Of a stretch of 64,000 bases of DNA, positions 1-64,000 are shown piece after piece (the stretch's first letter is position 1; every line of letters starts with the position of its first letter). Below the pieces are notes generated by a model. It worked only from the letters and a program-made list of their open reading frames with translations. It made no database searches and was not told the origin of the DNA. Source of the DNA: a virus; IMG/VR virus record IMGVR_UViG_3300045988_046609. One strand, written 5' to 3'. The position numbers and the translations under genes are program-made.

Positions 1-3000
1 AATCCAGTCTATCTGTCTTTAAAAGATGTTAGAGAAAAACATGGCACTAAGGATAATCTAAGAGAATCTGGAGAAGGTTTTGTGGATACTGTTAATAATG
101 CTTTAGCAGATGAAAGAGACGGAGCCATATTTAAAGAATTTGATGACAATCAACTTTAGAATCAAAATGTATTTGTAGCTTTATCTCCTAGATTAATTAA
201 ATCTATAGACAATAGTGGATCGTTCAATCCAAGGTCTGCGAATATATTTGATAAACAAGACTCTCCACTTCAACAACAGTCTATGTCTCAGATAGATGAA
301 GCTATGAAGAGATTTAGAGCTGAACGATACGATTTTGATAAGACATTAGATACGTTAAGACAACTAATAACTAATGCTGTACAAGCACGTATTAAGTCTA
401 TTCAGAATCGTAAGATAGCTAACAAGACTGCTTTATTAGTTCCTTTAGAGCAATAGCTATCTGCCCTCAAGAATCCGAATATCGACTCATTACAGACCAT
501 AGTATACTGTTTATCGGATATAAAGAGAACTATGACTCGTCCAGTTAATGCCATACTTACTGCTCAAAAGAATCTTAGAGAAGGTAGGGATAGTGGATTT
601 AGTAATCTAGCACTAATACAACTTCAATAGGATTATTTTGGTATGTATAATAACGTGCTAGAGGAAATTGCTAGAAATGTATTTGATTCTGACATTTATA
701 AAGACATACTTGGAGCATAGAGTTTCGATCAGATGAAGACTATGATATCCAATATGCGTACTCAATTTGCAGCAGCTAGACAAGGACTTATTGAACTTAC
801 TACGGATTTAGCATAGAAGACTATGTTAAAGTATGGTATTAAAGATGAACAAAGTAGAACAGAATTGGAATAGTATGTAGGAGAGGATCTTATTACTACT
901 GAAAATGATGTTAGTTCTCTAATGAGATGGATAGGGTCTGGAGATAAGATGAACGATAAGGCTGCTAGAGTTATGTTCGATATGATAGCAAACACTAATA
1001 ATAAGACTCGTTTCGCCACTCATAAGTTCGGTAATAAACTATTACGTTTACAGAAACAGATATCTCTGGGAGATCAAATGAGATTGTTCGAGTATGATTC
1101 GGATGGTAAAAAGACTGGTTACTTCATTAGAGATAGAAAGTATGGAGAGTTTCTTAATAATCTTGAGAAAGAACGTAAACGCTTAAAGACTAAATATAAT
1201 GTTCCAGAAGGATAGAATATGCCTTTGGAGAAAGAAGCTAGAACTGCTTTCAATAAGGAGATGAATGACTGGTTGAGTAAACATTGCGAACGTAGATATA
1301 CTAAGAAATATTATGATGCATTTAATTCACTTAGTCAAGAAGCCAGAGATGCTCGAGACGCAATACAATTTAAGATATACAAACTACTGGATGATGTAAG
1401 AGATAGTAGAGGAAAAGTACATCTTGAAAATCTAGACGCTAAACAATGGGCACAATATGAGAACTATAACATATAGAAGAAGCAGTTGATGTCCATGTAC
1501 TATGAAGACGGTACTCCTAAAACTGATTTAGATAAGCAGGTAGCAGAAGAACTTACTGAATTAAACAAGATGCTTCATGAGGGAATGCATTATGTTACCA
1601 ATGAATAGAAGTTCAACGAAGCTAAACGTGAAGCAAAGGAAAATCTTACTCCAGAACAGTATGAAGCATGGAAGAAGAGATATACCAGAGTATAGATTAG
1701 TGATAAATTCTATAAACAACTATCTTAGATAGAGAAGAAAGAATACGGAGATAGGTACATTGAGTTAAAGAAGATAAGAGAAGAGCTTACTAAACCGTAT
1801 AGAAATGAGTATACTGGAGGTATTGATGTACAGTATATGTCATCTACTCTACTGCATACTTTAAATAGTTTGGATAGAGAAATGCGTAAAGAGAGAAAGA
1901 ACGCTCGTAAATCCAAATCTAAGAAAGAAGAAGAGTCTATAGAGGGACTTAAATTCGAAGACATTGCAGAATCAGTGCCTACTGAACAATATAAAAGAGA
2001 TAAGTAGGCAGCTGTAAACAGAGGTATAGAGTTCTATGAACTATGGGAAAATCAGCATCATATCAAATACTACATAGGTGAGAAAGAAGTAATAGTTCCA
2101 AAATGGTACTATACTAAGATAGTTCCAAAGGATGAAAGACTTATAAACTATGAAGCACCTACTAGAGAGTTTAGTGAAATAGATCCTAATTCAGAGTATT
2201 TCAATAGTAAATTCGATGTAAATATTGACGAGTACTATCAACCTAAAGAATCTCTTTACAAGAATAAAGAGTATGATAATTTATTTAAAGTAAAGAAGGA
2301 TAAGAACGGTAATGAAGTAGCTACTAGAAATATACCTCTGTGGAACTTATATAAAGAGTTACTCAATGGTATGGAAACATCTAATGATAAACTTACTTTC
2401 TTGACCAGAAATAATCCATATAAGTTACCACAAATGAGTGGTAGTATGTATCAATATGCTAAAGGAGATGGTATTATAAAAGGATTCTTACAATATACCA
2501 GACAAGGTATAGTAAAAGACGTAGATGATGTAGGTTACGTTGATGCTCCTACAAGTAGACCAGATGGATCTGCTTAGAGAATGATTCCTACTTATTATAT
2601 AAACAAGTTAGACGATCCTAATAAGATTACAAATGACTTAGTTGGTTCTGTTATAGCTTACTTCAAGATGGCTGAAAACTTCAAGAATAAGACAGAGATA
2701 CAACCAGACCTAGAAGTAATAAAGATGTAGATGGCTAATCGTGTATATACTGGAAAACCTATAGGATTAGATGCTCTCAAAAGAAAGATATTTAAGCAGA
2801 GTGATAAGAAAGTAGGTGCTGATACTAATACTTATAAGTTTATAAGTAGGTTTATGGATATGCAATTATATGGAGAAGAATCTAAATCTATACTTAAGAA
2901 ATTTGCAGAGGATAGTAAGATAGGTAAATTCTTTGGATTAGCAGGTAAAGAAGTAAACTTCTCTAAAGTAATCCACAGTATTAAGAACTATGGTCAATTA

Positions 3001-4233
3001 CTTGGATTAGGTCTCAACTTAGCTGTTGGAGCTACAGGTATGGCTACAGCTTTTTTGGCTCAGCTAGGTATGGCCGCTAATGGTAGATATTTCGATTTTT
3101 CTTCTTTTTCCAAGGCATATTTCAATATGGTAAGTAACTTGTTTGGTATAGTATAGTATGCAAAAGATACTACCACTAACAACAAGTATGTGGCATTGAT
3201 GCAGAGATTCGAAATAGGCACAGAATTCTAGAATGCTTTTAGAAACTCTAATAGAATTGGTATAATAAACACGATAAGTAGGAACTGGGCGTTCGGAATT
3301 TTTTCATTTTCTGATTTTGTAATCAAAGGTACTATACTAAATTCGATTATGAATAACTATAGATACTACAATGGAAGATTCTATAATAGTCAATAGTTCA
3401 ATTAGTTATTCTCTAACAAAGAAGATGCAAAAAACATCTGGAGGACTCTATAGAGTACTTATGATATAATTGAAATAGAAAATGGAAATATTGTAATTAG
3501 AGATAAAGCATAGGCTAAAGCTTTTGCTGAAGTATAGAATGAAATTAGTAATAGTGCTAGATCTCTTTCTGCTACAGCTGATGGGCAATTAACAGAAGAA
3601 CAGAAAGCACAATTCGCTTCTAACGCTTTTGGTTCTCTTATAATGATGTTTCGTAATTATATACCGAATATTATTAGTGAAAGAATCACTATGAAAAAAT
3701 AGTATGACTATAATTTAGGTATGGAACGTGAAGCTTTATTAAGAACTATAGGTAGAGTAGTACCTATGTTAATAAAGGATTGGAATAGTCGTAAACAACT
3801 AGATGCATCTGATATAGGAAATATTAGACAATTTAGTTATGAAATGACTATGATTGCTTTATTATCATTTGTAGTTAAACCTTTATTAGTTGAAGTTGCT
3901 GATGATGATCGAGACAATTGGGTTAAAAACTTCTTAGCTCTTCTAGTAACTAGAACTGGATTTGAGTACGGTAACCAATATAATCCTCTAGACTTACTTA
4001 ATACTATTACTTCAGTAAGTTCTATATTCGACATTATGAACCCATTCACTAATCTTATATCACTTAGTGAAATGTGGGAAATTGCTGTTAATAATAAGAA
4101 AATTAAGTATGGAGCTTATAAGGGCGACACAAAATTAGAAAGATGGTTATGGAAAATGACTCCATTTAAGAATGTCAAAGAAATTCAAGATCCCGCAATC
4201 AAACGAAAATATTACGAACAATTATACAAATAA
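1..4233 (+). CDS. Giant late protein, last ~1410 codons (5' end outside window), TAG read as sense; function unknown
   Basis: Track ORFs 922-1215, 1219-1476, 2371-2577, 2731-3156 and 3721-4233 are all in frame 1 and separated only by TAG. My manual translation of frame 1 from nt 1 finds ~22 TAG but no TAA/TGA until TAA 4231-4233. Confidence 0.8.
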
Positions 4234-4237: not shown

Positions 4238-4263
4238 AAAGGCTACTATTTCTAGTAGCCTTT
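4238..4263. terminator. Bidirectional hairpin terminator between convergent modules
   Basis: Perfect 10-bp stem aaaggctact / agtagccttt with a 6-nt loop. It sits between the + strand stop (4233) and the - strand stop (4286). A-run upstream gives a T-run on the - strand. Confidence 0.7.
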
Positions 4264-4285
4264 ATCGTTTGAAGTGCCTTGGAGG

Positions 4286-4789
4286 TTAGCACTCTTCTGA
4301 CATGTCTTCGAAGGGATCTTCGATAACATCACCAAAAGGTATGACGGATTTTACTTCATGAAATTCATTAGTAAACAACACATTTGGTAGGTTAGTATGA
4401 ATACCATTGAATAACTCAAGTGTTTTACTCATTTCAGATTTACTTAGTTCTGCAGGTCCACCGCTGATTAGTATATCTCTACGAGTTTTAATTTCTTTAG
4501 GTAAAGTAAATACAGCTATTTCATACCATTGGTCATTTATTCGAATCTGACGTAGACTATGAAAATACTTATTCTTTCTTAGCTCGTATTGAAGATTTAA
4601 CAATGCTTTTATTGTTGTTTCTCTATACATCACAAATAAGTTATCACAGAAATAAGGTTCATCTGGATAATCTGTATATACATTTACAAGATTTTCGTTT
4701 ACTAACTTCTTATTGTCTATCACTAAGTGCAACAAACAAGCTGTTGCTTCATTTAAGTTCTTCAGTTCCATTTCCTTCGTAATATTCAC
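4286..4789 (-). CDS. Hypothetical protein (167 aa)
   Basis: Uninterrupted ORF, TAA stop, overlaps the upstream gene end in operon style. Confidence 0.6.
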   Translation of the reverse strand: MNITKEMELKNLNEATACLLHLVIDNKKLVNENLVNVYTDYPDEPYFCDNLFVMYRETTIKALLNLQYELRKNKYFHSLRQIRINDQWYEIAVFTLPKEIKTRRDILISGGPAELSKSEMSKTLELFNGIHTNLPNVLFTNEFHEVKSVIPFGDVIEDPFEDMSEEC

Positions 4790-5723
4790 GAGTATGGTCC
4801 CAATTTCCCGTTTGATAGTGATATGAAATTTCTGTTAAAGCATTTGCTATTAGGTCTTTGCGGTCCAATAACTCTTTTTCATTTAACATATTAAATACTC
4901 TTACTCCGTTATTACCATTGCTTTGAATTGCAATAATGTATGCTTCTAAATCAAATTCCTCTATATTATATCCTAGATCAGACATATACCATGTAAGAGC
5001 TAAAATATAGAATGCAATTTGTCTATAGTAGTCATATTCTTCTACAGAATGCTTAAAATTATAAACATCTGCTGTAGTTTTTAAGTCTATAAGGATTATC
5101 TTCTTATTAACAAAATCAATTTTAACTCTATCTAATAAGGACTTACAAGATACTCCTTGTTTTGTTGCTTCCCAGTTTATATGAAACTCATTATTACAGT
5201 CCCAACCAGGATTATTTGTAAGTAAATCTTTTGCTTTTTTATGATTATTAATATTCTCTTCTATTCGTTTAAGCATATTTAAATCAGCAAATGATATTAC
5301 TGTAAATGTTTGATCTTTATCTAAAAATTCAATATACTCTGCAAACTTGAGTTGTAACTCTTTTGCTTTCTTTAACATGGCATCTTTAGACATATTATTG
5401 CCAGAGTATGCAGATTTATATGCATCTAGTAATTTATCTTCTTCTAATAATTCTGTAGAATGAAAATAACGTTCACAAAATGCAATCTGCTGTGCTGTTT
5501 TAGGCTTCTCATAGTCAATAATCATATAATTATGCCAGAATTCATCTGGCTGAAGTAAGTACATGTGTATCATAGTACCTTTTTCAAGATACTTTCCACT
5601 TATACCTTCTTCTTTACCGTCAAGCATATCCTTGAGGTAACGTGGTCCTTTTTTCAAGAACCACCCTATTGCTGAATTTGATATTCGCGTGTTATCTTCA
5701 TAATACGGAATTTCTATTTTCAT
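4749..5723 (-). CDS. PD-(D/E)XK (RecB/Cas4-like) nuclease
   Basis: 324-aa ORF with motifs KIILIDLKTT (D..D/ExK-type core) and YYRQIAFY (QxxxY). Confidence 0.6.
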   Translation of the reverse strand: MKIEIPYYEDNTRISNSAIGWFLKKGPRYLKDMLDGKEEGISGKYLEKGTMIHMYLLQPDEFWHNYMIIDYEKPKTAQQIAFCERYFHSTELLEEDKLLDAYKSAYSGNNMSKDAMLKKAKELQLKFAEYIEFLDKDQTFTVISFADLNMLKRIEENINNHKKAKDLLTNNPGWDCNNEFHINWEATKQGVSCKSLLDRVKIDFVNKKIILIDLKTTADVYNFKHSVEEYDYYRQIAFYILALTWYMSDLGYNIEEFDLEAYIIAIQSNGNNGVRVFNMLNEKELLDRKDLIANALTEISYHYQTGNWDHTREYYEGNGTEELK

Positions 5724-6595
5724 GCTGCTTCTTCTAATTCTACTTTAGGAGTATCTTCTTCCTCATCATAATCACTACAGAAACTTCCAGAAGTATCCCA
5801 TTCATTATTGTCTTCTCCTAGAGCTTCTATAAACTCTTTCTGCATATCAAGAAAAGTATTACACTCTTCTAGAGTAAGAGGTTTATTTCCATTTAGTTTA
5901 AAGTAGTCTCTTATAACAAGTTTTAAGTACTCTATAAATTCAGTTTTTAATGTAATTTCTTCTTGTGTCATAAAATCTAATGTTACTATATTTAAATCCT
6001 TTTTAAAGTTATAACTATTATCTAATATAGAACAGTTATATTTTCTGTGATTTTTATTAGATACTCCTTCATGCCAATGTCCAAATAAATGAATTTTGGC
6101 TTTACCAAAAGTATAATGACCTAATGCATTATTGTAATTAGGATTATCATGAGTAATTAGTATATCACATTTTGGTATCTTATTATATAGTTCATTATCT
6201 TGCAATTCAAATGCCCACCTTCCTTGCTGAAACAAAATAGGGTTTATCCATGGTGTTCCGTAGAAACTAATTCCTTTATAAGTATAAGACTCATCAATAA
6301 GCATTTCTACTTTATCATTAGTTATAGCTCTCATAAGTGCTTTAACTACTTCCCATGTTCCTTCAATATACATTCTTTCAAGATAGAAATCATGATTTCC
6401 AGGTACTATTATTACTTTATTGCACGGTAAATTATTTATCCATTTAATAAAGTCTTCAGTAAACCATTTATCAGATTCTTTTATATCTCTCTGAATATTT
6501 AAAGGAACTATATCACCACAAATGCACAATACATCGCACTTAGGAATCTCATTATATAGATTCCCGTGTATATCACTAATTCCACATATTTTCAT
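5720..6595 (-). CDS. Calcineurin-like metallophosphoesterase
   Basis: Motifs GISDIHGN, CGDIV, VPGNHD, ITHDNP and GHWHEG occur in canonical order. Confidence 0.85.
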   Translation of the reverse strand: MKICGISDIHGNLYNEIPKCDVLCICGDIVPLNIQRDIKESDKWFTEDFIKWINNLPCNKVIIVPGNHDFYLERMYIEGTWEVVKALMRAITNDKVEMLIDESYTYKGISFYGTPWINPILFQQGRWAFELQDNELYNKIPKCDILITHDNPNYNNALGHYTFGKAKIHLFGHWHEGVSNKNHRKYNCSILDNSYNFKKDLNIVTLDFMTQEEITLKTEFIEYLKLVIRDYFKLNGNKPLTLEECNTFLDMQKEFIEALGEDNNEWDTSGSFCSDYDEEEDTPKVELEEAA

Positions 6596-6646
6596 ATTGT
6601 AAGAATTTAGTAAGTTTATAAATAAGTATTGAATAAAATAGTATCA

Positions 6647-7495
6647 TTAGGATAGATCTTCAATTATTTCATCCTCATTAGAAATATTAGTTCCTGTTCT
6701 TATTACTCCATTTAAGCTAAGATTCATATCTTTAGCTAATTCATCTAATGGAATATCTTCGAAGAGAACAACTTCATCTAAGAATGCTGAAATATTATCA
6801 AATGATTTAACTTCCATATGCTCGACAATGAAGTTCACGACTTCATCTATATTCTTTATTCCTTTATCTTCTGCCATACAGCGTACAAATGCAGAATTAG
6901 AGTTTGCTTTGTATTCTTTAAAATAACGAACACGTGAACAACGATCAAAGAAGTTATCGTCTATCTGATCTGTTTTGTTACAGGTCATCAATACTAGTTT
7001 TTTAGATGTAGCTTCCACACCGTCTAAGAATCCTAATAGATCCTTAGTTTCCCACCAATAAGTGTTTTTTTCAATCTCATCAAACATAACTGCTACAGGA
7101 GTAGTAAAATGTTTAAAGAAACTAGTAAGTTTATTAGCAGGGTAGTCGTTTGCGACTATGATAATAGGTAAATTACTTTCTAGGGCAATACGTTTAGAGA
7201 GCATTGTTTTGCCTGTACCTTTAGTACCTGCAAGTAATATACCGGTTGTCTTTCCAGAATTATCAGAATTAAAATAACTTAATACACGTTTGATAAATTT
7301 ATTATCTTCTTCTAGTTTGTATAATTTCTTTGGCATGTTCAAATCACCATTTTCTTTGAGATAAGATCTACCTTGCATTCTATCATACTCTAGATCGTAT
7401 ACTTTGTTACTTATGAGTTCATAAGAAATACCTTCTAACTTAGGTTTAACTGTAATCTCATTTCCGATCTTAATAAATTCTGCCATAATATTCAT
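6647..7495 (-). CDS. AAA+ ATPase
   Basis: Walker A LLAGTKGTGKTML and Walker B VAVMFDEIEK. Confidence 0.8.
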   Translation of the reverse strand: MNIMAEFIKIGNEITVKPKLEGISYELISNKVYDLEYDRMQGRSYLKENGDLNMPKKLYKLEEDNKFIKRVLSYFNSDNSGKTTGILLAGTKGTGKTMLSKRIALESNLPIIIVANDYPANKLTSFFKHFTTPVAVMFDEIEKNTYWWETKDLLGFLDGVEATSKKLVLMTCNKTDQIDDNFFDRCSRVRYFKEYKANSNSAFVRCMAEDKGIKNIDEVVNFIVEHMEVKSFDNISAFLDEVVLFEDIPLDELAKDMNLSLNGVIRTGTNISNEDEIIEDLS

Positions 7496-7498
7496 TTT

Positions 7499-7946
7499 TT
7501 ATGTTTTCAACTTGCTGATTAACTCATCAACTTGTTTCTGTGTATGTACCACATAAAACGCTGTATTAGGTTCATGTGTGTACAAATAGTAGTTAAATAA
7601 CTTTTCACGCAAAGCCCATGTATCATTTGGATAGCCTTTGCATTCAATAATAAACTTATCACCTACAAAATCAGGTTTATAAGTTATTGCCCTATATTTC
7701 TTATCACCAAAAGTAAAAGCTGGAAGCAGTTCGTATCGTTGAGTTTCATACTCAGCTTTAATATTTGACTCTTCCAGCTTCTTATATGTATATGTCTCAA
7801 GTTTGCTTTTAAACCTAATACCATTATACTCATTTGGTGTTGCATTGCGAATTTTGCTTTCGCTAGGCTTATTTCTTTTCCTCTACGTCATTAGTAATAT
7901 TAGATTTTCTGGAAATAGTTTTCCTTTCTGCGGTGAACCATATCAT
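7499..7946 (-). CDS. T7 endonuclease I-like Holliday junction resolvase, reading frame disrupted (frameshift or TAG at codon 3)
   Basis: Not in the ORF track. The minus frame ending at TAA (7499-7501) encodes ...FKSKLETYTYKKLEESNIKAEYE...ITYKPDFVGDKFIIECKG..., the endonuclease I YxPDF...ExKG pattern. The only in-frame ATG (7889-7891) is followed by ACG then TAG. A 25-codon ORF that starts in an ATGA overlap with the primase stop (ATG 7944-7946) is in the +1-related frame. Confidence 0.6.
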
Positions 7947-8941
7947 TTGTTAATATTTTTAGTTAACCAATTTTTTACTTTTTCAAATCCATTAGCTTTA
8001 ATAGCATCAGATATATCCTTTGCCTTAAATTTCTTATGGATTAACATACCTTCTAAGCCTGTTTTTTGACTCATTTTACGAAGATATTTTACTCCAGCTC
8101 TGTCACGATCAAATAATATAATAATGCGCTTAAAACGCTTCTTAAGTCTATCTAATACCTTTTCAGGTATAAAGGTTGATTCTGAAGACGGAGATATTGC
8201 TGGTATTCCCATTTCGTATAAACACATGACGTCTTTCATACTCTTTGTAATAATGAGTATATCTCCAGTCTTAGGTAACTGTTTATAACCTTGAATATCT
8301 AATTCAGTTAGGTTATTACGCCATTTTGTATATTTGTCGGCTAAAGGTTTATATATCTTAAAATGATTATAAACTTTATATGCATACATTGGATTATCTT
8401 CTTTGTAAACGCTTTTTACTATGCCGTTGCATAGGTAGTACTTTATACTACTTACTCCAAACTTCTTTAAAGTATCTACCGTAATATTAAACTGCTTCCA
8501 GTAATTGATGTCAGTATCAGTGAAATTCTGACGTACTACACCAATTACTGTTTCAGTTGACGGTATATATTGCTTAGAGCTAACTAATTGCGTATCTTTA
8601 GTAATTTTAAGTTTCTGAATAATATCCTTAAGTATATCATTATAATTTGTTAATCCAGTATAAATACTTACAAATTTAATAACGTTACCGCATTCTCCAG
8701 TTCCATGATCTTTAAACATTAACTGTTTACTAGTTCTACTATAGAAACATCCAAATGATGGGTTTCTATCTTTACGAAACGGACTATTGTAAATCATCCC
8801 TACTTTAAAATTACCTATATACGCAGCATATATATCATACTCCGTTACTTTAGAAAGTATATAATCTAAAGTAATATTATCATCATCGTTTATTATTTTC
8901 GTTGTATCGTAAGTCATATGATATATTTTTAGTAGGAGCAT
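7943..8941 (-). CDS. DNA primase (DnaG/Toprim-like)
   Basis: 332-aa ORF with Toprim-like ILIITKSMKDVM and IIILFDRDRAG motifs, located in the replication cluster. Confidence 0.5.
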   Translation of the reverse strand: MLLLKIYHMTYDTTKIINDDDNITLDYILSKVTEYDIYAAYIGNFKVGMIYNSPFRKDRNPSFGCFYSRTSKQLMFKDHGTGECGNVIKFVSIYTGLTNYNDILKDIIQKLKITKDTQLVSSKQYIPSTETVIGVVRQNFTDTDINYWKQFNITVDTLKKFGVSSIKYYLCNGIVKSVYKEDNPMYAYKVYNHFKIYKPLADKYTKWRNNLTELDIQGYKQLPKTGDILIITKSMKDVMCLYEMGIPAISPSSESTFIPEKVLDRLKKRFKRIIILFDRDRAGVKYLRKMSQKTGLEGMLIHKKFKAKDISDAIKANGFEKVKNWLTKNINK

Positions 8942-50931: not shown

Positions 50932-51028
50932 TGCGTTCATGAACGTGGAAATCTGAAATAAGGAAAGTAGAACATGAACTAAGTTTACATGAGCGCGCAT
51001 TTATGTTAAACTAAAAATAAATTTTAAA

Positions 51029-52000: not shown

Positions 52001-52022
52001 TAATTAACATTTTACTAAACGA

Positions 52023-52070
52023 AAGTGGGGCGGGTTGGATTATTCCTTCCCACTCCACTTTTTTATTTTA
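52023..52070 (+). terminator. Intrinsic terminator
   Basis: aagtgg(gg)...ccactt stem followed by ttttatttta. Confidence 0.6.
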
Positions 52071-52693: not shown

Positions 52694-52700
52694 AAATATT

Positions 52701-52913
52701 ATGTGCACATGTAATGAATTAAAATAGTTCTTATATGTTGCTCTAGACTTCTAGGGTAACATCGTAGTAATATCAGATTATGCTAGTTATCCTAATGTAG
52801 AAGTTGATCCAAAAGATAACTAGATTACTTTTGATGAACCAGATGTTAAAGACTTTATTAAACCAGATACAAAATTAATTTTTTAGAATGGAATACACAA
52901 AATTATTAGGTAA
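52701..52913 (+). CDS. Small hypothetical protein (70 aa, 4 TAG)
   Basis: ATG 52701 open to TAA 52911-52913 with TAG read through. Confidence 0.35.
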
Positions 52914-55900
52914 AGTTACTCTTACTTGTGACGGTAAGCATGATTCTTCTAAAGAATATGATAGATTATGTTTAGTCTATGACGAACAATATAGGTCTTT
53001 CATATCTATAAAAGAAGTACCAAGTAATATAAGTTTGACTAACGAATCATATTGGCAACCTATAAGTGTAGTATATGCTGATGGTGAGGATATAAAAGTA
53101 GATGATGATCTTAGTCTTAAATTTGCTGATAAAGAGTATAATCCTAGCAAATATAGTGGATTAGGTAGAAAAATTCTACGAAAAAGAATAGTTAATAACA
53201 AAAATATACTGCTACAAACTGATTTTGATAGTAGTGATACTATATATGTAATTCAATACGAATTTGATTTACAAGGTAAAACTATCACTATACCAAACAA
53301 TAGTATATTGTTATTCGAAGGAGGTAAGTTCGTAAACGGTGACGTAGTATTAAATGATACTATGATATTACCATAGGGCATTGACGTAGCAGAACATATA
53401 GAAGGAAATATTACAGGTACCTATAAAGACGGATAGATATACTACGATTCAGTTAAGGATAGTTTAATAGCAGTAGTAAATAATAACAAGATAGATCTTT
53501 CTACGCCTAATATTACTAATGAGTATACCAAATTTACTTGGATTAAATATTCTCCTTCCCAATATGGAGACTAGATGACAGATCAGCCGGAAGAAGACTC
53601 ACAGTATATTGGTATTGCTTCCAATAAAGAAACCGAAGAACCAAGTAATAATCCATTAGATTACGTGTGGGCTAAATTTGTAGGTCCATAGGGTGCGCAA
53701 GGTTTAAGGGGAGAAAGAGGATTTCAAGGTCCTCAAGGAGAACAAGGGCCTCCTGGTAAAGATGGATTAGATGGAAAACCAGGGCAATCTGTGAAACCAA
53801 ATTGGAATACATGGGTGTTTAAGCAAGCAGAATTGCAGCCATCTAAACCTACTTTTGTTACCCCTACTCCTGGAGTATCTGGTATTGACGGTTGGTTTGA
53901 TGGTCCTAGCGCTGAAGGTAAATGGTGGATGTCTATGGGTTTAGTAGATGGTAGTACAAATACTGTAGCCACTTGGTCTGACCCTGTATAGTGTACAGCT
54001 GAAGACGGTAAAACTAATACCTATATGGATTTCAAATATTCTAAGAGTGTATCCATAAATATAATACCAGCATTAAATAAAACTAGTAGAAATCCTGTTG
54101 GTTGGGAAGATACTCCACCTACATTAGCTCCAGGTGAGTTTATGTGGATGATCAATGCTCTTATAGATGAGAACAATGAGTTAGTCAAGGAATGGTAGGG
54201 TCCGATAAGAATAACTGGTGAACAAGGGCCACAAGGTGAACCTGGATAGGGAGAACCTGGAGATACTTATAACACGGTGTTCGCATATAAATCTAGTGTA
54301 GAAAAACCAGAGAAACCAGTAGGAGGAGAATGGGATGCTGACACTAATACCATAGTATATCCAGAAGGTTGGTCTAGTAATGACGAAGAATTAACTCCAC
54401 CTGTGTGGATGTCCAATAAAGTGTTTACATCCAATCCTAATATACAAGGGGAATGGTCAGAACCTATAAAGATATCTGGGCAAGATGGTGCAGCTGGAAC
54501 TGATGGTAATTCGGTAGAATTTATTTATACTCGTACAACTGATTCGGGAGTAGGTGATGCTCCTGAAACTCCTGTAGGAGAAGATGTAGATGATTTTATT
54601 CCTCTTAATTGGACAGATAATCCTAAGGGAGTAACTTCTATATTAAAAGCAGAATGGGTTAGTACCAGAAGTAAAAAGGATAATAAATGGGGAGAATTTA
54701 GCACCCCTGCATTATGGTCTAAGTGGGGAGAGAACGGATAGGACGGAGATGGAGTTCAATATATATTCTATAGAACTGCTACGAATAATGATCCTGATAA
54801 TCCTACTCCAAATAATACTAATTCAGACGCATATCAAGAAACTGGAGACTTCGAAGGTATTGAATATATACCAGGAGATGGTTGGACTGATAACCCACAA
54901 GGAGTTACTAAAGAACTATAGTATGAATGGGTATGTCAAAGAAAATTTAGAGGGGGACGATGGAGAGCTTACACAGGACCTTCATTATGGGCTAAATATG
55001 GTAAAGATGGTTTAGACGGACTAGGTAGTATCGTATTAGACTTGGACAATGAAGTTCAATCGGTAGCTACAGATAACTTAGGGGCTGTAATATCTGGATT
55101 ACCGGTTACTACCAAATTGACTATGTATTATGGTACTACCGAACTGAATCTTAGTTCTTTAAGTGTACGTCAAGTAAATGGAATTACAGCTACAGCAGAT
55201 AGAAAGACTGGTATAATAACAGTGAGTGCTATAACTCCTTCAGCTCCTACTAATATTCGTATACCTATTGATGCTTCGTGCGTATGGAACAATGAGTTAA
55301 TAGAAAGAACTACTTATCTTACTATTAATAAAATTAAACCAGGTGCAGATGGTCAGGATGCAATATTATATTCTTTAGTGCCTTCTGTAGATGCTATGCA
55401 CGTAGACAAAAAAGGAGTAGCTGATGTTAAGTTTATTAGCTGTGGGATTAAGAAGACCCAAGGAAAAGTTACTACTATGCTCACTTCTGTTCCTGCTGGA
55501 TTCCAATTTAAATACGTGATAGACGAAGACTTAGCTGAGAACTATACTATAGATTAGAATTTATCTGTTACTTCTATAGATAAAAAAGTAACATTCCTAC
55601 TTACTAGTGGAGAAACTCTAGTAGATAAAGAGACTGTATTCAAAATAAGTGATGGTAAGGATGGAGTTGATGGTGTAGGAGGATTAGTAACAGACTTTGA
55701 CAATGATATGTAGTCTGTTGCTTGTGATTCTAAAGGTAATGTGATTTCTGGATTGCCATTAACTACTACAGTAAGCATGTACTACGGCACTACTAAGTTA
55801 GTATTAGATAGTTTAGCTGTAGGATCCGTAGAAGGAATAACTGCTAGTGCAAATGCATCAACAGGGGTAATTACAGTAACAAGCATATCTTCTACTACCG

Positions 55901-58251
55901 GAGATGTTATAAGAATTCCTGTAAATGTTAAAGCTTCTAATGAAGGTACTCAATATGTTAGAGATGTAATATTTACTATAAATAAGATAAGACCAGGAGC
56001 AGATGGAGAGAATGCAAAAGTATATTCTTTATTACCTTCAGTAAACGCTATTCATAGATTTAAAGATGATAGTAATGAAGTAAACTCTGTTTGGTGTGAT
56101 CTTCAATTAATAGAAGGAGATACTATTAAAACTCTAAATACTACTCCAACTGGATATAAATTCACATACAAAGTAGATAATGGAGGTGAAGCTAATTATT
56201 CAATAGGTAGTGTAGTAGCCAGTAGTTCCATTACAGCTCAGGTGACATTTACTTTATACGATGAGAGATCAGGCAATAGAGTAACAGTGGATACAGAAAC
56301 TATATACGTTATTAGAGATGGTAAGGATGGTGAAGACGGACAACCTGGAACTGTTCCAAATTGGAAGACTTACGTATATAAGTAGTCAAACACTAAACCA
56401 GATAAACCTACTTTTAGAGTTCCTCAACCCGAAGGATTAGACGGTTGGGTTGACTTTCCAGATTCTTCTACGGGACAATGGTGGCAATGTATAGGTTTAG
56501 TATACGGAGAAACCAATAGTGTTCATGTTTGGGGAGAGGTAGTTCCATTAAATGGTAAAGATGGAGTAGCTCAAGACGGTAAGTATACTGAATTTAGATT
56601 CAAAGCTGTGACTACAGGTTATTCTCCTGGTACTCCTTAGTAGGTCCGTAATCCGGCAGGATGGAATACTACAGTACCTTCTGTGGATGAGAGTATAGAA
56701 ACGCTATGGATGATAATGGCTGTTATAACTCCTAATGATACATTGGAATCTAGTTGGAGTACTCCTGTAAGAATAAGTGGTGAAACAGGGTAGGACGGAG
56801 AACCGGGAGCAACATTATACACTTGGATAAAATATTCAGATAACGAACCTACTTCTGACGCTGACATATATGACACACCTAATAGATATACTAAATATAT
56901 TGGTATAGCATATAATAAGACCAGTCCTGTAGAAAGTACAGATTATGAAGTCTATGAATGGACTAAGTGGGTAGGAGCTGATGGTAATAAAGGTAGGATA
57001 ATATATCCAGTAGGTACTTACAGTGACAGTAAGACATATACCTGTACTGATGAAAAGGCACCATATGTGTTCTTTAATGATGAGTACTATGTGATGAACA
57101 AAAACGGTAATTGGTTAGGTACTAGCACTGGAAAGACTCCAGAACAAGATTGGAACACCAATGGCAGTAATGCTACATGGATCTTAATGGATAAATACGA
57201 AGCCTTGTTCACTAAAATATTAATTGCGGATGGTGGCAGCATGGGTAAATTTATATTCAATGGAGATTACATGTTTAGCCAAGAAGGAGTTGACGGTGGA
57301 GGAAATGCTACTAGTAATTATTAGAATTTTACTAACAATATTGTTAATTTTACTAACCATTTCACCATGCCCTCAGATTCCAACTGGGTAGATGAAGTAT
57401 CAATAGAGACATATAAAGTAACTGTACGTAATGCTGTTGTATCTATGATGTGGGGAGTTAATACAGATATAGTTAGTACTACTAAATAGACACCTGAATT
57501 TAAAATAAAAGTTAAAGGAGTAAAAACTTATCCTTCGGCAACTGTACAATTACAATATAAATATATTAAGAATGGTAATCTAAAGTACATACAAATGCCT
57601 ATAACTAGTTCTACAGTAGAATATACTTTACCGGCTAGTGAAGCCGGCAGTGGAGGAGACTATACTACATCTATAGAGATAGCACAGTTTGGTACTGGAT
57701 CTTTAAGCGTATCGTTTGAATTTTATATAAGTAGTGTATTTATTCCTAATTTCATGGTAAATGCTGTCACTGGATAGGTAGATATGAATAAAGGAGTAAT
57801 AAGAATGAGAAGTGCCGAGGCATATGATAAGTTATACTACTCATAGCTAACTGGTAGCACATCAGTATATAGACCTGATATTACATCTAATAAACAGCTA
57901 ATGATAATAGATGATATTGGAGCTACTGATTATACCATATCGTTACCTTTTAATGATGCTTATGAAGGTATGTCAATATATATATTTTATACTTCTACTA
58001 CTGGTGCTGGCAACTACGCACTGAGAATAGTAACTGAAAACTCTCAGAGTGATTTACCTGGAGGAGTAGGTAAATTCCTATATAACGGTTCATTAAGTTT
58101 AAGTATAATAACATTAACTCCTAATAAGTTTGTATAGCTTAAATACACCAACATGGCTTCTGGATATGTAATGTCTGGTAGTACCGTTGTTCCATTTAAT
58201 TGCCCTGCTTGGATGGTTGAAAATGGGTCTGATTTCTAGAGACAAATATAA
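52888..58251 (+). CDS. Giant tail fibre protein (1787 aa, ~21 TAG) with collagen-like segments and duplicated domains
   Basis: ORFs 52888, 53791, 54277, 55042, 55741, 57067, 57595 and 57901 are all in one frame, open to TAA 58249-58251. G-X-Y run at 53683-53790. Confidence 0.75.
55042..56340 (+). repeat. Tandem duplicated ~170-aa domain inside the tail fibre gene
   Basis: LDNEVQSVATDNLGAVISGLPVTTKLTMYYGTTEL...INKIKPGADGQDAILYSLVPSVDAMH compares with FDNDM-Q-SVACDSKGNVISGLPLTTTVSMYYGTTKL...INKIRPGADGENAKVYSLLPSVNAIH (second copy from 55696). Confidence 0.8.
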
Positions 58252-58253: not shown

Positions 58254-58520
58254 ATGAATGATCTAAATAATTACGTAAATAATAAACTATTATACTCTGT
58301 AAAGTATAATAACAGAGACGTAGTATCTGCTATATGCTCTAATGAGTTATAGTTTCTACTTACTAAAGTAGAATTTGTTCAAGATAGATAGATGCTAGAA
58401 TCTATGATCTGTGGAATTAATAGACAGATAGATAAAGATATACCTTTAAAGTTAGTTAAAGTGTGTAACATAATAAATTGTAAAGACTGTAATTATTGCA
58501 GGACCTGTTGCTCAAATTAA
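58254..58520 (+). CDS. Small Cys-rich hypothetical protein (88 aa, 2 TAG)
   Basis: ATG 58254 open to TAA 58518-58520. Confidence 0.4.
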
Positions 58521-58554
58521 CGTTCAGTATTATTATTAACTAAATATGTAAATT

Positions 58555-58845
58555 ATGAAAATAGATTTTAAAAATATAGTTATTAGAGATATTGAGGGTA
58601 ATGAAGAGAATATAGACATGTCAAAAGAGTTAGGTAAAATTCTTTATAGATCTGCTATAAGTAAAGAAGGATTAGAACTAGCTAAGGACATTTATGACAA
58701 TGGTGAAGTAGAACTTGACAAAGATGCTGCAATTTCTATAAAAGGTGTAGTATCTAACGGCTTCTTAGCCATAGTTCAAGAATCTGTAATACCTATGTTA
58801 GATGAAATTATAAATTCTGAAAACAATGACCAACAAGCTGAGTGA
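58555..58845 (+). CDS. Hypothetical protein (96 aa)
   Basis: Uninterrupted ORF. Confidence 0.5.
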   Translation: MKIDFKNIVIRDIEGNEENIDMSKELGKILYRSAISKEGLELAKDIYDNGEVELDKDAAISIKGVVSNGFLAIVQESVIPMLDEIINSENNDQQAE

Positions 58846-59017
58846 ATACAGTGATAGGGAATTGTTAGAAGCAATATATACTATGCTACAATATGTAATA
58901 GTAAGAGTAAATGAAATTGATAATGATGATAAACAATTTGGAATGAATCTTGCTGCAGATTTACTTGGTAGTATAGTATATGATGCTCAACCTAGAACTA
59001 CGAGATATGCAAATTAA
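58826..59017 (+). CDS. Hypothetical protein (63 aa)
   Basis: ORF overlapping the previous gene end. Confidence 0.4.
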   Translation: MTNKLSEYSDRELLEAIYTMLQYVIVRVNEIDNDDKQFGMNLAADLLGSIVYDAQPRTTRYAN

Positions 59018-59039
59018 ATGGTTAAAAGAAAGTAATAGA

Positions 59040-59243
59040 ATGAAGCACCTGAAGTACGCAATACTACCAGGTGCTCTGTTCACTATATTATTTGTAGCCG
59101 GTTTGGCTACAGGTATGGAGTTTAAAGATAAACAACACGGTGGTAAATGGGATTGGTTAGACTGGATAGCTACTATGATAGGTGGTGTTATTGGTCAAGC
59201 AATCCAAGTAGGTATAATATTATCATTGAAGTTATGCATATAA
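59040..59243 (+). CDS. Holin-like small membrane protein (67 aa, 2 TM)
   Basis: MKHLKYAILPGALFTILFVAGLATG...IATMIGGVIGQAIQVGIILSL, adjacent to a putative cell-wall enzyme. Confidence 0.4.
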   Translation: MKHLKYAILPGALFTILFVAGLATGMEFKDKQHGGKWDWLDWIATMIGGVIGQAIQVGIILSLKLCI

Positions 59244-59695
59244 TATCAGAAAGAATAGCTAAAAGAAGTACATATACTATAAGTAATATGTATATAGATG
59301 GCGTTAAATTCTGCAATGTTCTTGAAGATACAGATAGAGGACTTACACAAGATACTCCGCTAGAGGATATATAGAAGATTAAAGTATATGGTAAGACTGC
59401 GATACCTACTGGTACATATAAAGTTACTTTAGATGTTGTGTCTCCTAAATTTAGTAAATATAAACAATATAAATTCTGTAATGGAAAATTACCTAGATTA
59501 TTAGATGTACCTGGTTTCAATGGTATTTTAATTCACATAGGTAACACAGAGGCGGATACAGATGGATGTTTATTGGTAGGAAAAAATAACGTAGTTAGTA
59601 AAGTAACGGAAAGTACTGTAACATTTAAAGCATTATATGCTAAGATGCAAGAAGCAGTAGAAAACGGAGAAGAAATTACTATTACTATTAAGTAA
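59234..59695 (+). CDS. DUF5675 / YkuD-like fold protein, possible cell-wall hydrolase (153 aa, 1 TAG)
   Basis: TYTISNMYIDGVKFCNVLED and ILIHIGNTEADTDGCLLVG (His...Gly-Cys pattern of L,D-transpeptidase-like folds). Confidence 0.4.
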
Positions 59696-59712
59696 CACAA
59701 AGGCGGATACAG

Positions 59713-60165
59713 ATGAAAACAATTTTATATAATCCTATATTTATTAACCCACAGGCTTATTACGTATTTCCAAGTCTGAATGGTCAGTTAGTGGAATAGA
59801 AAGATACTGCCATTGAACCTGCTAAGTATTCCGGAATAATAGAAGTAAAGGTAATTGCTAATGGAGATAGTAAGCTTATTAGGTATTATTCTAATACTAA
59901 TAAGATAGATCTATCAGAGTTCAAAGATTCTTGGATTAGAATAAATTTATATACAGATTTAGGAGCTGTGGTGTTGGGGGAATGGAAACTATAGATATCA
60001 ACTCCAGTACCTCCTGAAGTGAATTACACAGTATTCCCAACAATTGACTTGCAAGAGGTCCCTCAGGATGAGATAGACAAGCGTAACCTTGTTCCTCGCA
60101 AGAGTGTAAATGAGAGTGAAACTTTGATGAAATGCCAGCACTATACACAGTTAAAAAATAGTTAA
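59713..60165 (+). CDS. Hypothetical protein (150 aa, 2 TAG)
   Basis: ATG 59713 open to TAA 60163-60165. Confidence 0.5.
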
Positions 60166-60177
60166 TAAGCACAGAAA

Positions 60178-61515
60178 ATGGTAAGATTTGTAAACTTTAG
60201 AGCAACAGATATTTAGCCTAATCCAGATGAAGTAATGTATTGGGTAGATCTGGCTACTGATCCTCTAGGTGGTAGTATTAAAACTTGGAATGCGGAAGGG
60301 TATTGGGAAACTCTTCGAGTATTAGAAGGTACACTGCCAGAATTTGAAGAGAAAATTAAAAAATATGTACAATAGCAATTAGAATCATACGAAAAACGCG
60401 TAGATGAGAAGATTAAGATTATTGAGGGTCAAATAGCTATTGTAGATCAAGATATAGAATCATTAAAACAAGGTAAACAAGATAAGCTAGTAGCCGGTAC
60501 TGGTATCAATATATCTGATAATGTAATATCTTGCATAGTAGACTTAACTTTATATAAGGTAGTACTTGAATTACCTACTGAAGATATTGATCCTACTAAA
60601 ATATATTTGGTATTAGATGAAGACGGAGAGGAAGGTAATATATGGAAAGAGTACATATATGTGAATAATCATTGGGAATTGATGGGAGAATATCAAGCCC
60701 CTATAGATTTGTCTCCATATCTTACTAAAGAAGAGGCTAAAAATACTTACGCAACCAGAGCACAATTATCAAATACCAATAGAATTATAGGTATTACTGG
60801 TGATGGAAATCTACCAGATCTATCAGATACTAATTATATTAGTAATTCTAAAGATTTAATAAATAATATTAAGGTTCTAGATAGATAGATCGCAGATGGT
60901 AGACACGAAGAAGTATGGGAAGTACTGTATAATCAATTTACAGTAATTTCAGGATTTTCAGTTTCTCCCACTATAATCGAAAAAGGAGTTTCTACTTCTA
61001 TTAAAATGGCTGGTAGATTCTTATTTAACAATGAACCTTTTATTCCATAGAGTGTAACTCTTAAAAGAGATTCTGTAGTTATACATAATACTCCAATAGA
61101 TAATCTTAATGGCATCACAGATAATCTTGATACTACTAGTGATAGTGTTGTCTATAGAGTAGATATAATAAGTAATGAAGTACAAAAATCAGCTACTGCA
61201 ACAGTTCGTGCATACTACCCTATGTTTTTTGGTCATTCTCCAAAAACCAGTTTAACTTCTACAGATATAACGGGCTTTACTAAGTAGCCTATCAAGAGTT
61301 CACCAAATGGAACACATTCTATGAATGTAAATCAAGGTGATTACGTGTGGTTATGCATACCATCTAATTTTAATATATCTAAAGTGACATCTTCTGGATT
61401 TGGAGTTCCCATGGAAAATCCTATTTCAGTAACTGTAGATAGCAAGGGTACATATAAATGTTATCGTACAAGTGGGTAGCTTAATGCTGGAACGTTTGAT
61501 TTTACAATTGGATAA
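60178..61515 (+). CDS. Tail/fibre-module protein (445 aa, ~6 TAG)
   Basis: ATG 60178 is in frame with ORF 60607-60888 and open to TAA 61513-61515. Confidence 0.6.
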
Positions 61516-61529
61516 GAATAAAATATATT

Positions 61530-64000
61530 ATGGCAAACATTAAAATATATGGTACCCTGGTTAATGATACTACAGATCCTAAGATAGTCAATACCGATCA
61601 AACTTGGGATAAAGATTTATAGAAGTACCAATCTGATATTAACCAGAGTACGAATAGCTTAAAAACAGAACTCGATGAAGAGATTGCTAGAGCTACTCAA
61701 GCAGAAAGAGACATATAGAATAGTGTGTCTGCAGAAACAGCAAGAGCTCAACAGGCAGAAGCAGATAATCTTGAAAAAATAAATAATGAAATAGCAAGAG
61801 CTAAATAGGCTGAAGAGACTAATGCTAAAGCTATTAAAGATGAATCAGATAGAGCTAAAGCTGCTGAGTCAAAGAATACTGATGCTATTAATACAGAAAT
61901 AAGTAGAGCACAAACTGCAGAGAATCAAATAATTGGTTCTGTATATTCCTTAGATAGTTATGTTAAAGAATCTATTACAGAATTAAAAGAATCAATTGGT
62001 AGTGATAGTGGTCTTTCTGATAGAATAGATGAAGTTGAGGCTGCATACAAAGCCGCAGATAATGCTTTAGGACAAAGAGTCACTGATGAAATTACTAGAG
62101 CTACTAATGCAGAAAATGCCAATACTAATAAAATTACTGCTGAGAAGAATCGTAATGACGCACAAGACACTTTAATAACTAATCTACAAGATAGTAAAGT
62201 AGCATCAGTAGAACTGATCTAGGATTAGTAGAATAGCTTGCATTACACATTAATGGTAGATTCTGTCAATGCTGGAGAAATTAGTATACCTAAAGATAGA
62301 TTCCTTAAAGAAGTTGTATATGATGCGGATACTACTAGTTTAGTATTCACTTTTGTAGCAGAAGATGGAGATTCTATAGTAAGGGTAAACATAGGGGATT
62401 TAGTAGATGTATATACTGCTGGAGATGGGTTACAACTTGCTGCATCTAACAAATTTAATGTAGTTATAGACTCTACATCAGATTCATATTTAACTGTAGG
62501 CCCTAATGGAGTAAAATTAATAGGTGTAGCTGCAGCTATTAATTCTGTTAGATCAGAGTTTGAAGAATCTAATTAGCAGTTGATAGGATCAATAGAAGCA
62601 GAAACTGCTAGAGCTACAGAGGTAGAGAATAACCTAGTAGGTCAAATACACGCACTAGATTCATAGAAACAAAACACACTTATAAGTGGTACTAACATAA
62701 AGACGGTTAATGGGGAATCTTTAGTTGGATCTGGTAACATTGAAATTACAGCAGGAGCTGGAGAAGTAGATGAAGCACCAAAGGATAATAAAAAATACGG
62801 TAGAAGAAATGCTGCATGGTCTGAGATTATTGAATTCTCTGGTAACTATAATGATTTAACTAATAAACCTACTATACCTGATACTAGTGCGTTAGCTACT
62901 AAGACAGAATTGAATAGTGGATTAGCCGGTAAACTTAGTTTATCTGGTGGTACTATGACTAATACTAATTTGGTCACTAATCTTAATGCAGAGCTACTTA
63001 ACGGTAAGCGATCTGTTTATTATTTCTAGGTATAGGAATCTGATATTACTACCGAACAAGCTAAAACATATTATAATAATTCTGTATTGACAACTAACTC
63101 TGATAATCTTGGTACTAATGAATATAATTTTGGACAATTCTTGTGCTTTAATAGACATCTATCTGTAACACACATATATATTCCAGATCTAGTTGACGGT
63201 AAAACAGATTATCACATATATGTCAGAAACGCATGGAATGGTAAGAATATGGACATGTCATAGGTTCCGTGGAGGCAAATTCCATGGAGAACAGATTTAA
63301 CTTGGGATACTATAACTAATAAACCTACGTTCTCCTCATCTTCTGTTGCTAATTCTGTAGCATAGAGAGACTCTTCATCTAGATTATGGGCAACTGGTTA
63401 TGTAGTATCTGGTTCAGATGGTAATTAGTTATTAACAGGTTCTGGAGTTACTAAATCAGTATTTGATTTCACTCGTTTTTTAGCTCCTAATAACATAGAT
63501 CAAGTAACCGGTTCATTTTTTGGGTATTATGATAGAGACAACACTGGACAGTTACCAATAACAGGAGAAAAAGGTAATATACTTTAGATAACTGATAATA
63601 CTGCATCATTGCCAGGTAGTAGTAATAATAATTCTTTGCAAATAGCTTTATCACACGGTAATGTAGACAATTTATACTTTAGAAGTTCGTTATCCAATAG
63701 CGGTTGGAACTCGTGGAAGAAATTAGTTACGTCATCTGATAAACTACCAACTCCATATGCATTGACATTTACTGGAGCTGTAACAGGAACTTGGGATGGA
63801 TCTGCAGCTAAAACAATTAACATACCAGCATCTGCATAGGGGCCTAAGGGAGATAAAGGAGATCCGGGTGAGAATGGTATAACACCAACTATTGGTTCCA
63901 ATGGTAACTGGTATTTAGGGGATACTAATACTGGTAAACCTTCTAGAGGTGAAACTGGACCTAAGGGGGATACAGGGCCTAAGGGAGATAAAGGAGATCC
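61530..64000 (+). CDS. Second large tail fibre protein (3' end outside window, ~15 TAG) with coiled-coil N-terminus and collagen-like G-X-Y repeats at the end
   Basis: ATG 61530 is in frame with ORFs 62238-62576 and 63609-63839. GPKGDKGDPGENG... from 63840. The 26-nt repeat gggcctaagggagataaaggagatcc occurs at 63840 and 63975. Confidence 0.7.

Follow-up and report, generated by a model that had tools for sequence, protein, structure and literature searches.

The window examined here, the whole 64-kb stretch taken from the IMG/VR virus record IMGVR_UViG_3300045988_046609 (33% G+C), comes from a crAss-like phage in which the late genes very probably follow the known amber recoding of this group, TAG being decoded as glutamine ('code 15'), while the replication module remains compatible with the standard code. 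An original prediction, made from the letters of the DNA alone, held that TAG is a sense codon in the late genes of the plus strand and a stop in the early genes of the minus strand. Our analysis retains most of this picture and adds a suppressor tRNA with the anticodon CUA, absent from that prediction, which is situated between a TAG-poor plus-strand block and the gene for TerL. The division between the codes tracks the gene and its position relative to this tRNA, and not the strand. The phenomenon itself is not new, as the prediction also stated: recoding of late genes was reported for the delta group (Suoliviridae) of crAss-like phages (Yutin et al. 2021, PMC7886860), a timing model was put forward to account for it (Borges et al. 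2021/22, bioRxiv 10.1101/2021.08.26.457843), and peptides carrying Q at TAG were found in two other crAss-like phages (Peters et al. 2022, PMC9523058).

The TerL, portal and major capsid (MCP) proteins of the window are crAss-type hallmarks (PHROG families 6681, 6547 and 11589), with best tblastn matches in Suoliviridae, and its TerL protein is 82% identical to that of several "uncultured phage cr…" RefSeq records. The nearest relative is cr56_1, Buchavirus faecalis (NC_055890.1; Crassvirales, Suoliviridae, Loutivirinae; 97,290 bp), with which the window shares its gene order and, at the DNA level, 97.5% identity over 1-23181 and 92-99% over most other comparable segments. Identity is 95-99% nearly throughout the minus-strand block and, in the part of the late region that was compared, 92-99% in comparable stretches, falling to ~74% at the 5' end of TerL. 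The usual ICTV species criterion is 95% nucleotide identity; by these sequence comparisons the window is probably a strain of Buchavirus faecalis, a phage of the human gut. For the genus, Prevotella/Segatella is the suspected host. It covers ~64 kb of a ~97-kb genome, about two thirds, and thus is not the complete example that it had been taken for.

Distribution of TAG over the window

The late genes on the plus strand (1-4233 and 38112-64000) comprise 22 genes and 9602 codons, of which 128 (1.33%) are in-frame TAG. One gene runs past the end of the window; the others stop at TAA (19) or TGA (2), and none at TAG. The claim that large late genes are split by TAG alone was therefore confirmed, and the count comes close to the ~130 TAG previously obtained by hand. 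The minus strand presents the opposite situation, since its 33 genes, with 6729 codons, contain a single in-frame TAG against ~90 expected at the late-gene rate (P ~1e-37), and their stops are 22 TAA, 5 TGA and 6 TAG. Out-of-frame TAG trinucleotides are common in both the late and the minus-strand sets (3.3% and 2.6%), indicating that the contrast is a property of the reading frame and not of composition. The base following the sense TAG codons (A 44%, G 27%, T 21%, C 9%) is near the first-base usage of all codons, so that no readthrough context signal was seen in following-base usage.

The same division emerged from the coverage by open reading frames (ORFs), considering ORFs that run from stop to stop, measure 100 codons or more and lie on the coding strand. 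In 38112-64000 coverage was 53% under code 11 and 95.5% with TAG as a sense codon, whereas in the minus-strand block it merely moved from 70.6% to 72.1%, so the comparison of coding density by code and strand came out as the original prediction would have it. Reading TGA or TAA as sense in 38112-64000 was also tried, and yielded coverages of only 55% and 62%.

Strand and code do not, however, coincide. The proposed division by strand holds for the late genes as opposed to the replication module but fails for the block at 32468-37003, which lies on the plus strand and is TAG-poor: its 1375 codons include one TAG, while the rate of the late genes predicts 18 (P = 2e-7), and none of its genes ends in TAG, so that the block reads the same under either code. 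TAG density is graded, rising from 0.01% (replication module) through 0.07% (block upstream of the tRNA) to 1.3% (late module), and the jump coincides with the tRNA genes. A comparable step is found in relatives (0.06-0.28% upstream of the tRNA, ~1% downstream), and in five of them the recoded genes downstream of the tRNA likewise never end in TAG. Three regimes can therefore be distinguished: one in which TAG is avoided internally and sometimes used as a stop, one in which it is avoided altogether, and one in which it is a free sense codon.

The single TAG of the intermediate block lies in a gene labelled as a transcriptional regulator, a name that comes only from the RefSeq and Yutin annotation, as the protein has no Pfam match and no sequence relative in the PDB. 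This TAG must be read through, because the 45 residues that follow it are conserved. It is common to four Buchavirus genomes, and Q is found at the position in 108 of 120 homologues; other Loutivirinae lineages present CAA there, or a TAG at codon 40 instead, or no TAG. The idea that it represents a dedicated, conserved gate was discarded, since it is lineage-specific and other genes of the block also carry sporadic TAGs.

The exception on the minus strand is the Holliday-junction resolvase, the sole gene of that strand requiring readthrough, contrary to the statement that there was none. Its reading frame opens ATG ACG TAG, exactly as in cr56_1, and no alternative start codon is available ahead of the conserved domain. 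In cr109_1 and cr60_1 it is codon 4 of the homologous gene that is TAG, in cr52_1 codon 7, and the gene of cr4_1 has none; further internal TAGs, one of them aligned with Q, are present among the homologues, and in two further IMG/VR contigs the protein starts M-M/T-TAG. Phages such as T4 need a resolvase when their DNA is packaged, and a TAG right after the start would hold the enzyme off until suppression begins. Hence, the notion of two decoding regimes in one genome stands in its core, but code cannot be equated with strand, as each strand has its exceptions.

Probable readthrough as glutamine and the suppressor tRNA cassette

When TAG is read through, TerL, portal and MCP each give a single near-full-length PHROG match spanning 11, 11 and 1 TAGs, respectively, with E-values from 1e-135 to 1e-160. 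Homology continues through the TAGs, which do not fall at real protein ends or in introns. To identify the inserted residue, ten late proteins, with X standing for each TAG, were aligned to DNA from eight relatives, and the codons facing the X positions were recorded. These codons were TAG (74), CAA (50), CAG (21), GAA or GAG (28) and AAA or AAG (17), the rest being scattered. The Boorivirinae cr10_1, cr50_1 and cr1_1 have no TAG in the late genes aligned, and no suppressor tRNA was found in the region fetched around their TerL; against them, the TAG positions of the window matched Gln in 32 of 105 cases, so that the probability of Q given TAG is 0.305, compared with a background of 0.041 (P = 2e-19). 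A likelihood comparison, in which substitution profiles from the same alignments were used, scored Gln at -281.5 and the next residue, Ser, at -335.5. At the well-conserved portal sites 10, 50, 83, 557 and 692, every uncoded relative has CAA or CAG. Tabulating the residue aligned with TAG in the readthrough products, as had been proposed together with the prediction, thus gave full-length matches and favored glutamine.

The probability of Q opposite TAG (0.305) is lower than that of Q opposite Q (0.539), which places TAG mostly at Gln positions of low conservation. Between close relatives, TAG and CAA/CAG replace one another freely, and cr56_1, an independent assembly, has TAG at 31 of the 41 window TAG sites that were compared.

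The suppressor tRNA(CUA) is found at the same place in cr56_1, cr109_1, cr60_1 and cr6_1, as well as in six metagenomic contigs of other Loutivirinae lineages. Its D-arm, TGGTGTAATGGTNANCAC, was matched 64 times in cellular contigs, among others in tRNAs with the anticodons TTG (17) and CTG (12), both Gln and together 29 of 64, GTG (18) and CTA (8). The carriers with GTG (His) are apparently tRNA-His of candidate-phyla bacteria, and the eight with CTA are further CUA suppressors. This sharing of the D-arm suggests that the suppressor may have been derived from a tRNA-Gln. Its acceptor stem (U1-G72, C2-G71, C3-G70, A73) is unlike the identity set of E. coli tRNA-Gln.

At 7-9 nt upstream of the suppressor stands a tRNA-like gene, missed by ARAGORN with default settings, in which a 15-nt loop, GAAGCGCCCUAAAGU, is carried on a 5-bp anticodon-like stem. 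This gene hardly varies across 29 IMG/VR contigs, where its T stem and its anticodon-like stem show compensatory changes, and it always lies a few bases 5' of the suppressor, which itself occurs in at least five very different sequence types. The cassette was compared between the window (37004-39234) and cr56_1 (4262-8245). In the latter, an 80-nt suppressor with the acceptor UGGGGUA is followed by a homing endonuclease, so the two cassettes differ, whereas that of cr60_1 resembles the window's (tRNA-like gene, 76-nt suppressor and tRNA-Met). Relative to cr56_1, the region of the tRNA and the TerL 5' end is either replaced or down to 74% identity, against ~97% elsewhere; the TerL gene of cr56_1 measures 3075 nt, presumably through an intein-type insert, and that of the window 2052 nt. 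The suppressor cassette has evidently been exchanged by recombination, behaving as an exchangeable module.

The timing model and its rivals

As the replication module and the 11-gene block avoid internal TAG, they are readable by the unmodified translation apparatus of the host. In the model that we favor, these standard-code-compatible genes would be translated first, a few of them using TAG as a stop. The phage tRNA(CUA) would then be charged by the host glutaminyl-tRNA synthetase and, as it accumulates, TAG would come to be decoded as Gln in competition with release factor 1 (RF1). Only at that point would the full-length packaging, head, tail, lysis and giant virion proteins be produced. 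The split would therefore be one of gene and time, not of strand, and would serve a regulatory purpose. An ECF-type sigma factor, whose gene belongs to the replication module and has conserved counterparts in cr56_1, cr109_1 and cr60_1, is a candidate for a factor that could redirect the host RNA polymerase to middle or late genes.

Several observations weigh against this model. The terms 'early' and 'late' are assigned in this phage from gene function alone, and the boundaries between blocks leak, as shown by the resolvase, which requires readthrough inside the replication module, and by sporadic TAGs in the relatives' genes upstream of the tRNA. The suppressor scores only 33 bits in Rfam, and its T stem is bulged. 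PHROG and Pfam scans, which covered the window proteins apart from several small ORFs, revealed neither a release factor nor an aminoacyl-tRNA synthetase nor an RF1 inhibitor, and none of these is annotated in the parts of cr56_1 examined (~99% of the record); an amidotransferase was absent as well from the proteins scanned and from the annotation of cr56_1. A promoter or terminator pattern separating the blocks was equally missing from the scans made: a sigma-70 and terminator scan of 30.5-38.5 kb gave fewer promoter-like sites than shuffled sequences and showed no terminator that would separate the tRNA from the TAG-poor block, the Bacteroidetes-type pattern TTTG-N17-21-TAnnTTTG matched 3 times, always on the wrong strand, with 2.2 matches expected, and no 11-mer is present at least four times in intergenic DNA. 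These scans thus delimited no transcription units.

The use of TAG as a stop by early genes deserves the same caution. The contrast between blocks is marginal, with 6 of 33 minus-strand genes against 0 of 21 late genes (Fisher P = 0.07; P = 0.02 against all 32 complete plus-strand genes). All six TAG ends listed by the original prediction do read as CTA on the plus strand and close a minus-strand ORF, but only two are backed by homologues. These are the stops at 23221, where relatives have TAA or TGA at the exact position, and at 28827, where TAG is kept in four Buchavirus species and the sequence beyond diverges in content and length. As for the others, the TAG at 20142 is directly followed by TGA TGA, and that at 23591 lies opposite a Gln codon of relatives, the ORF ending two codons further on, as theirs do. 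The gene at 19675-20139 has a 3' end (19675-19720, minus strand) that is frameshifted with respect to cr56_1, cr109_1 and cr60_1, whose TAA comes ~20 nt earlier; whether this tail is a natural variant or an assembly error, it explains one of the claimed stops. Finally, the TAG at 30528 closes a small unannotated ORF beside an indel. With two of six well supported, the evidence for TAG termination of early genes is thinner than had been noted.

The main rival of the timing model is an unconditional code change in which TAG means Gln in all phage genes at all times, with the suppressor made at once or supplied by the host. The minus-strand genes would then be merely TAG-poor, and their apparent stops would be read through to the next TAA or TGA. 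RefSeq does annotate cr56_1 and its relatives in this manner, with genome-wide TAG readthrough and extended minus-strand ORFs, and the resolvase and the Gln codon opposite the TAG at 23591 are in line with it. So is the fact that five of the six TAG-ending ORFs reach TAA or TGA within 1-9 codons (the backup stops lie 1, 3, 5, 9, 9 and 33 codons downstream); however, a median of 7 codons is not clearly shorter than the ~12-17 estimated by hand from base composition, and the notion that these stops are unusually near was dropped. The near-absence of TAG from the minus-strand codons makes sense only if TAG is harmful there, and the TAGs at 23221 and 28827 are placed exactly where homologues stop or homology ends. 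Both facts disfavor an unconditional change, which we judge improbable. A different proposal (Yutin et al. 2021, PMC7886860, Discussion) gives the suppressor an anti-host role: it would mainly attack the host through readthrough of host TAG stops, the late TAGs having accumulated neutrally. The location of TAG at poorly conserved Gln positions fits a neutral drift between CAA/CAG and TAG, and the free swapping of these codons among close relatives and the confinement of the regulator TAG to one lineage point in the same direction. Such drift leaves unexplained the sharp and conserved block structure, the repeated TAG at resolvase codons 3-7 and the consistent avoidance of TAG in the MCP and the scaffold-like protein, and we consider it unlikely as the main explanation. 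An anti-host role is nevertheless compatible with the timing model, as the two are not mutually exclusive.

Two further readings concern the nature of the TAGs themselves. That TAG stands for another amino acid (pyrrolysine (Pyl), Glu, Lys or Tyr) might be supposed from the ARAGORN label tRNA-Pyl(cta), from Glu and Lys being the next most frequent residues opposite TAG, and from the departure of the acceptor stem from the E. coli tRNA-Gln set. Yet ARAGORN calls every CUA anticodon 'Pyl', the protein scans brought up no pyl genes, Gln leads the likelihood comparison by at least 54 log units, and the five portal sites mentioned above are all CAA or CAG in uncoded relatives. These data, together with the Q peptides from other crAss-like phages (Peters et al. 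2022, PMC9523058), make a different residue highly improbable. Assembly errors, pseudogenes or introns could in principle also interrupt genes, given that introns, inteins and homing endonucleases are common in the clade (PMC7886860) and that one window gene has a frameshifted tail. However, the 128 interruptions consist of one and the same codon throughout, without a single TAA or TGA among them, and all keep the frame; most of the sites compared are shared with an independently assembled genome, and homology runs straight through them. Full-length homology, sharing with cr56_1 and codon uniformity refute artefact or decay for practical purposes, leaving this explanation with a negligible chance.

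Returning to the timing model, the TAG load of the late genes is uneven in a way that might extend it. In the window and five recoded relatives the MCP has 0-1 TAG, the scaffold-like protein 1-2, and the proteins of the types encoded at 48813-49565 and 51029-52000 0-1, while in the same six genomes TerL has 6-15 and the portal 9-12. The TAG-poor MCP and scaffold-like proteins are presumably the most abundant proteins of the virion, which is suggestive, and only that, of an incomplete and costly suppression in which each TAG lowers yield and the number of TAGs tunes it. TAG is found within the first 20 codons in 8 of 21 late genes, where 4.6 would be expected (P = 0.04). It can thus be imagined that the code change works as a graded, gene-by-gene dial. 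Start-proximal TAGs, such as those at resolvase codons 3-7 across the genus and those of the eight late genes, would gate proteins, the number of TAGs would set the yield, with the MCP and scaffold-like proteins at one end and TerL and portal at the other, and the invariant 103-nt tRNA-like RNA would be part of the switch, acting in processing, charging or RF1 competition. We regard this extension as possible but doubtful.

E. coli supE provides a familiar precedent, an amber suppressor tRNA-Gln(CUA) that inserts Gln at UAG in competition with RF1 and suppresses only partially. The suppressor of the window would share this mode of action, but it is phage-encoded, has a different acceptor stem and, instead of rescuing a mutation, serves more than 100 essential codons. 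By analogy, partial suppression of the supE kind would fit the avoidance of TAG in abundant proteins. The closest known system is the amber recoding of the delta group, from whose reports nothing essential differs: the clade is the same, the structural, packaging and lysis module is TAG-rich and the replication genes TAG-free, a tRNA(CUA) is present, Gln was inferred from alignments, and no late gene ends in TAG. The window adds details to this picture, namely a boundary at the tRNA instead of at the strand switch, a TAG-bearing resolvase, the scarcity of TAG in MCP and scaffold-like genes, and a suppressor of another type than that of cr56_1. A TGA-recoding system likewise has its suppressor tRNA directly upstream of the recoded genes served, although in the window the stop concerned is TAG and the tRNA precedes packaging genes and not a lysis cassette. 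The code-change module of the Jade, Lak and Agate type, with a synthetase and/or a release factor near the suppressor, was not found in the scanned window proteins. 'Dual-coded' or bi-amber blocks (Ivanova et al. 2014; Pfennig et al., Mgcod, bioRxiv 10.1101/2022.06.29.495998) are summarized in a later preprint (bioRxiv 10.64898/2026.08.21.746148). By that summary, 32468-37003 and most of the minus strand resemble them, as these regions encode nearly the same proteins under codes 11 and 15 and adjoin a code-15 block; in the window, however, TAG serves as a stop in part of the dual region, and the resolvase inside it is not dual-coded.

The phenomenon, the clade and essentially the species are already in the literature and in RefSeq, and no new principle is involved; the additions are small: a layout of three regimes with the tRNA as its anchor, a resolvase gene that contains TAG, genes of abundant capsid proteins that avoid this codon, and a suppressor cassette that has been swapped. 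They have a practical side, since neither code 11 nor code 15 is right for the whole genome: code 11 shatters the late genes, and code 15, as applied in the RefSeq records of the genus, extends some replication-module genes beyond apparently real TAG stops. The resolvase with its TAG at codon 3, the TAG-shy capsid, the swapped cassette and its tRNA-like partner are small systems in which to ask how the switch is imposed when the phage seems to have no release factor or synthetase of its own.

Features of the window and other RNA elements

Table 1. Blocks, genes and RNA elements of the window, in order of position within each group.
Feature	Position	Strand	Details
3' part (1410 codons) of giant virion protein gene	1-4233	+	End of recoded late block; 22 in-frame TAG; TAA stop
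Replication and early/middle module, 33 ORFs	4286-32109	-	Standard-compatible code; exonuclease, phosphoesterase, ATPase, primase, Sak4-like protein, DnaB helicase, DNA polymerase, ECF sigma factor, many unknowns
Small genes (11)	32468-37003	+	TAG-poor; dATP/dGTP diphosphohydrolase domain, putative co-chaperonin, DUF7399, regulator, unknowns
Three tRNA-type genes	37250-38096	+	
TerL, portal, MCP, tail, lysis and fibre genes	38112-64000	+	Recoded; 106 in-frame TAG
Holliday-junction resolvase	7499-7891	-	TAG at codon 3 (plus-strand coordinates 7883-7885)
ECF-type sigma factor	22570-23136	-	Sigma70 regions 2 and 4
TAG stop of ORF 23221-23604	23221-23223	-	
Endonuclease ORF (endonuclease VII/HNH-like)	24976-25581	+	No TAG; 3' end overlaps group I intron
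Group I intron	25529-25784	-	Rfam 85 bits
RAGATH-20	26040-26137	-	101.8 bits
RAGATH-9	26786-26942	-	138.7 bits
Hatchet self-cleaving ribozyme	28608-28733	-	92 bits
TAG stop of ORF 28827-29276	28827-28829	-	
Putative transcriptional regulator, 130 aa	34054-34446	+	Single TAG, codon 85 (34306-34308)
tRNA-like gene, 103 nt	37250-37352	+	Rfam tRNA 35 bits
Suppressor tRNA, 76 nt	37360-37435	+	Anticodon CUA; encoded CCA end; acceptor UCCCCUA; ARAGORN; Rfam tRNA 33.1 bits
tRNA-Met (CAU)	38023-38096	+	Elongator-type body; Rfam 67 bits; immediately upstream of TerL; also in cr60_1
TerL	38112-40163	+	11 TAG
Portal	40166-42682	+	11 TAG
Protease	42710-43018	+	0 TAG
Late gene	43068-44618	+	10 TAG
Scaffold-like protein	44863-46041	+	1 TAG
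HNH endonuclease	46064-46639	+	6 TAG
MCP	46645-48114	+	1 TAG
Late genes	48813-52913	+	
1787-aa protein	52888-58251	+	21 TAG
Lysis-region genes	58254-60165	+	
Late gene	60178-61515	+	6 TAG
Tail fibre	61530 to window end	+	15 TAG

The gene that opens the window is the counterpart of cr56_1 gp38 (97.5% nucleotide identity), and its protein has no PHROG match. Between the scaffold-like and MCP genes, an HNH homing endonuclease gene has been inserted that has TAG at 6 of its 7 Gln positions; cr56_1 has no such gene at this site. It is similar in this to an intron endonuclease of Agate phages for which preferential recoding was reported.

The minus-strand module contains a 2.1-kb region (17547-19674) that has no ORF under any code and a higher G+C (0.37). 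It is conserved in length and sequence, mostly unannotated, in eight Loutivirinae genomes, and was also found in 60 IMG/VR contigs. Only 67 of 446 indels are multiples of three, and substitutions lack the three-base periodicity seen in the flanking genes, which indicates that the region is not protein-coding. On the minus strand it folds into conserved helices: at 19060-19320, 48 pairs are 97.6% paired and 18 of them have changed in a compensatory way, compared with 8.0 ± 1.8 in shuffles. For a 124-nt sub-domain (19145-19268), in which 17 of 35 pairs covary on 21 distinct sequences, the covariance model matches 55 of the 60 IMG/VR contigs sharing an invariant 22-mer. The region has no Rfam match at E up to 1, and the literature searched on crAss non-coding RNA contains no description of it. 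It is, on this comparative evidence, a candidate large structured non-coding RNA.

A second tRNA-like gene (14647-14763, minus strand; Rfam 33.8 bits) lies between the DNA polymerase gene and the next one. Its acceptor, D and T arms are good, and its anticodon loop is broken by a ~50-nt AT-rich insertion with three copies of ATTCGTAT, too short for a group I intron.

The diversity of RNA elements in the minus-strand module is completed by RAGATH-9, RAGATH-20 and a hatchet ribozyme, all above their Rfam gathering scores and located in intergenic gaps, and by a group I intron within a 1.76-kb stretch devoid of annotated minus-strand genes. At the corresponding region cr60_1 carries an annotated 'tmRNA' and 'tRNA-Leu', which may be misannotated versions of these elements.

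Beyond the reach of the window, cr56_1 encodes at 59433-61934 a reverse transcriptase beside a tail protein annotated like a 'major tropism determinant'. This locus is probably a diversity-generating retroelement, and the counterpart in the phage studied here belongs to the part of the genome outside the window.

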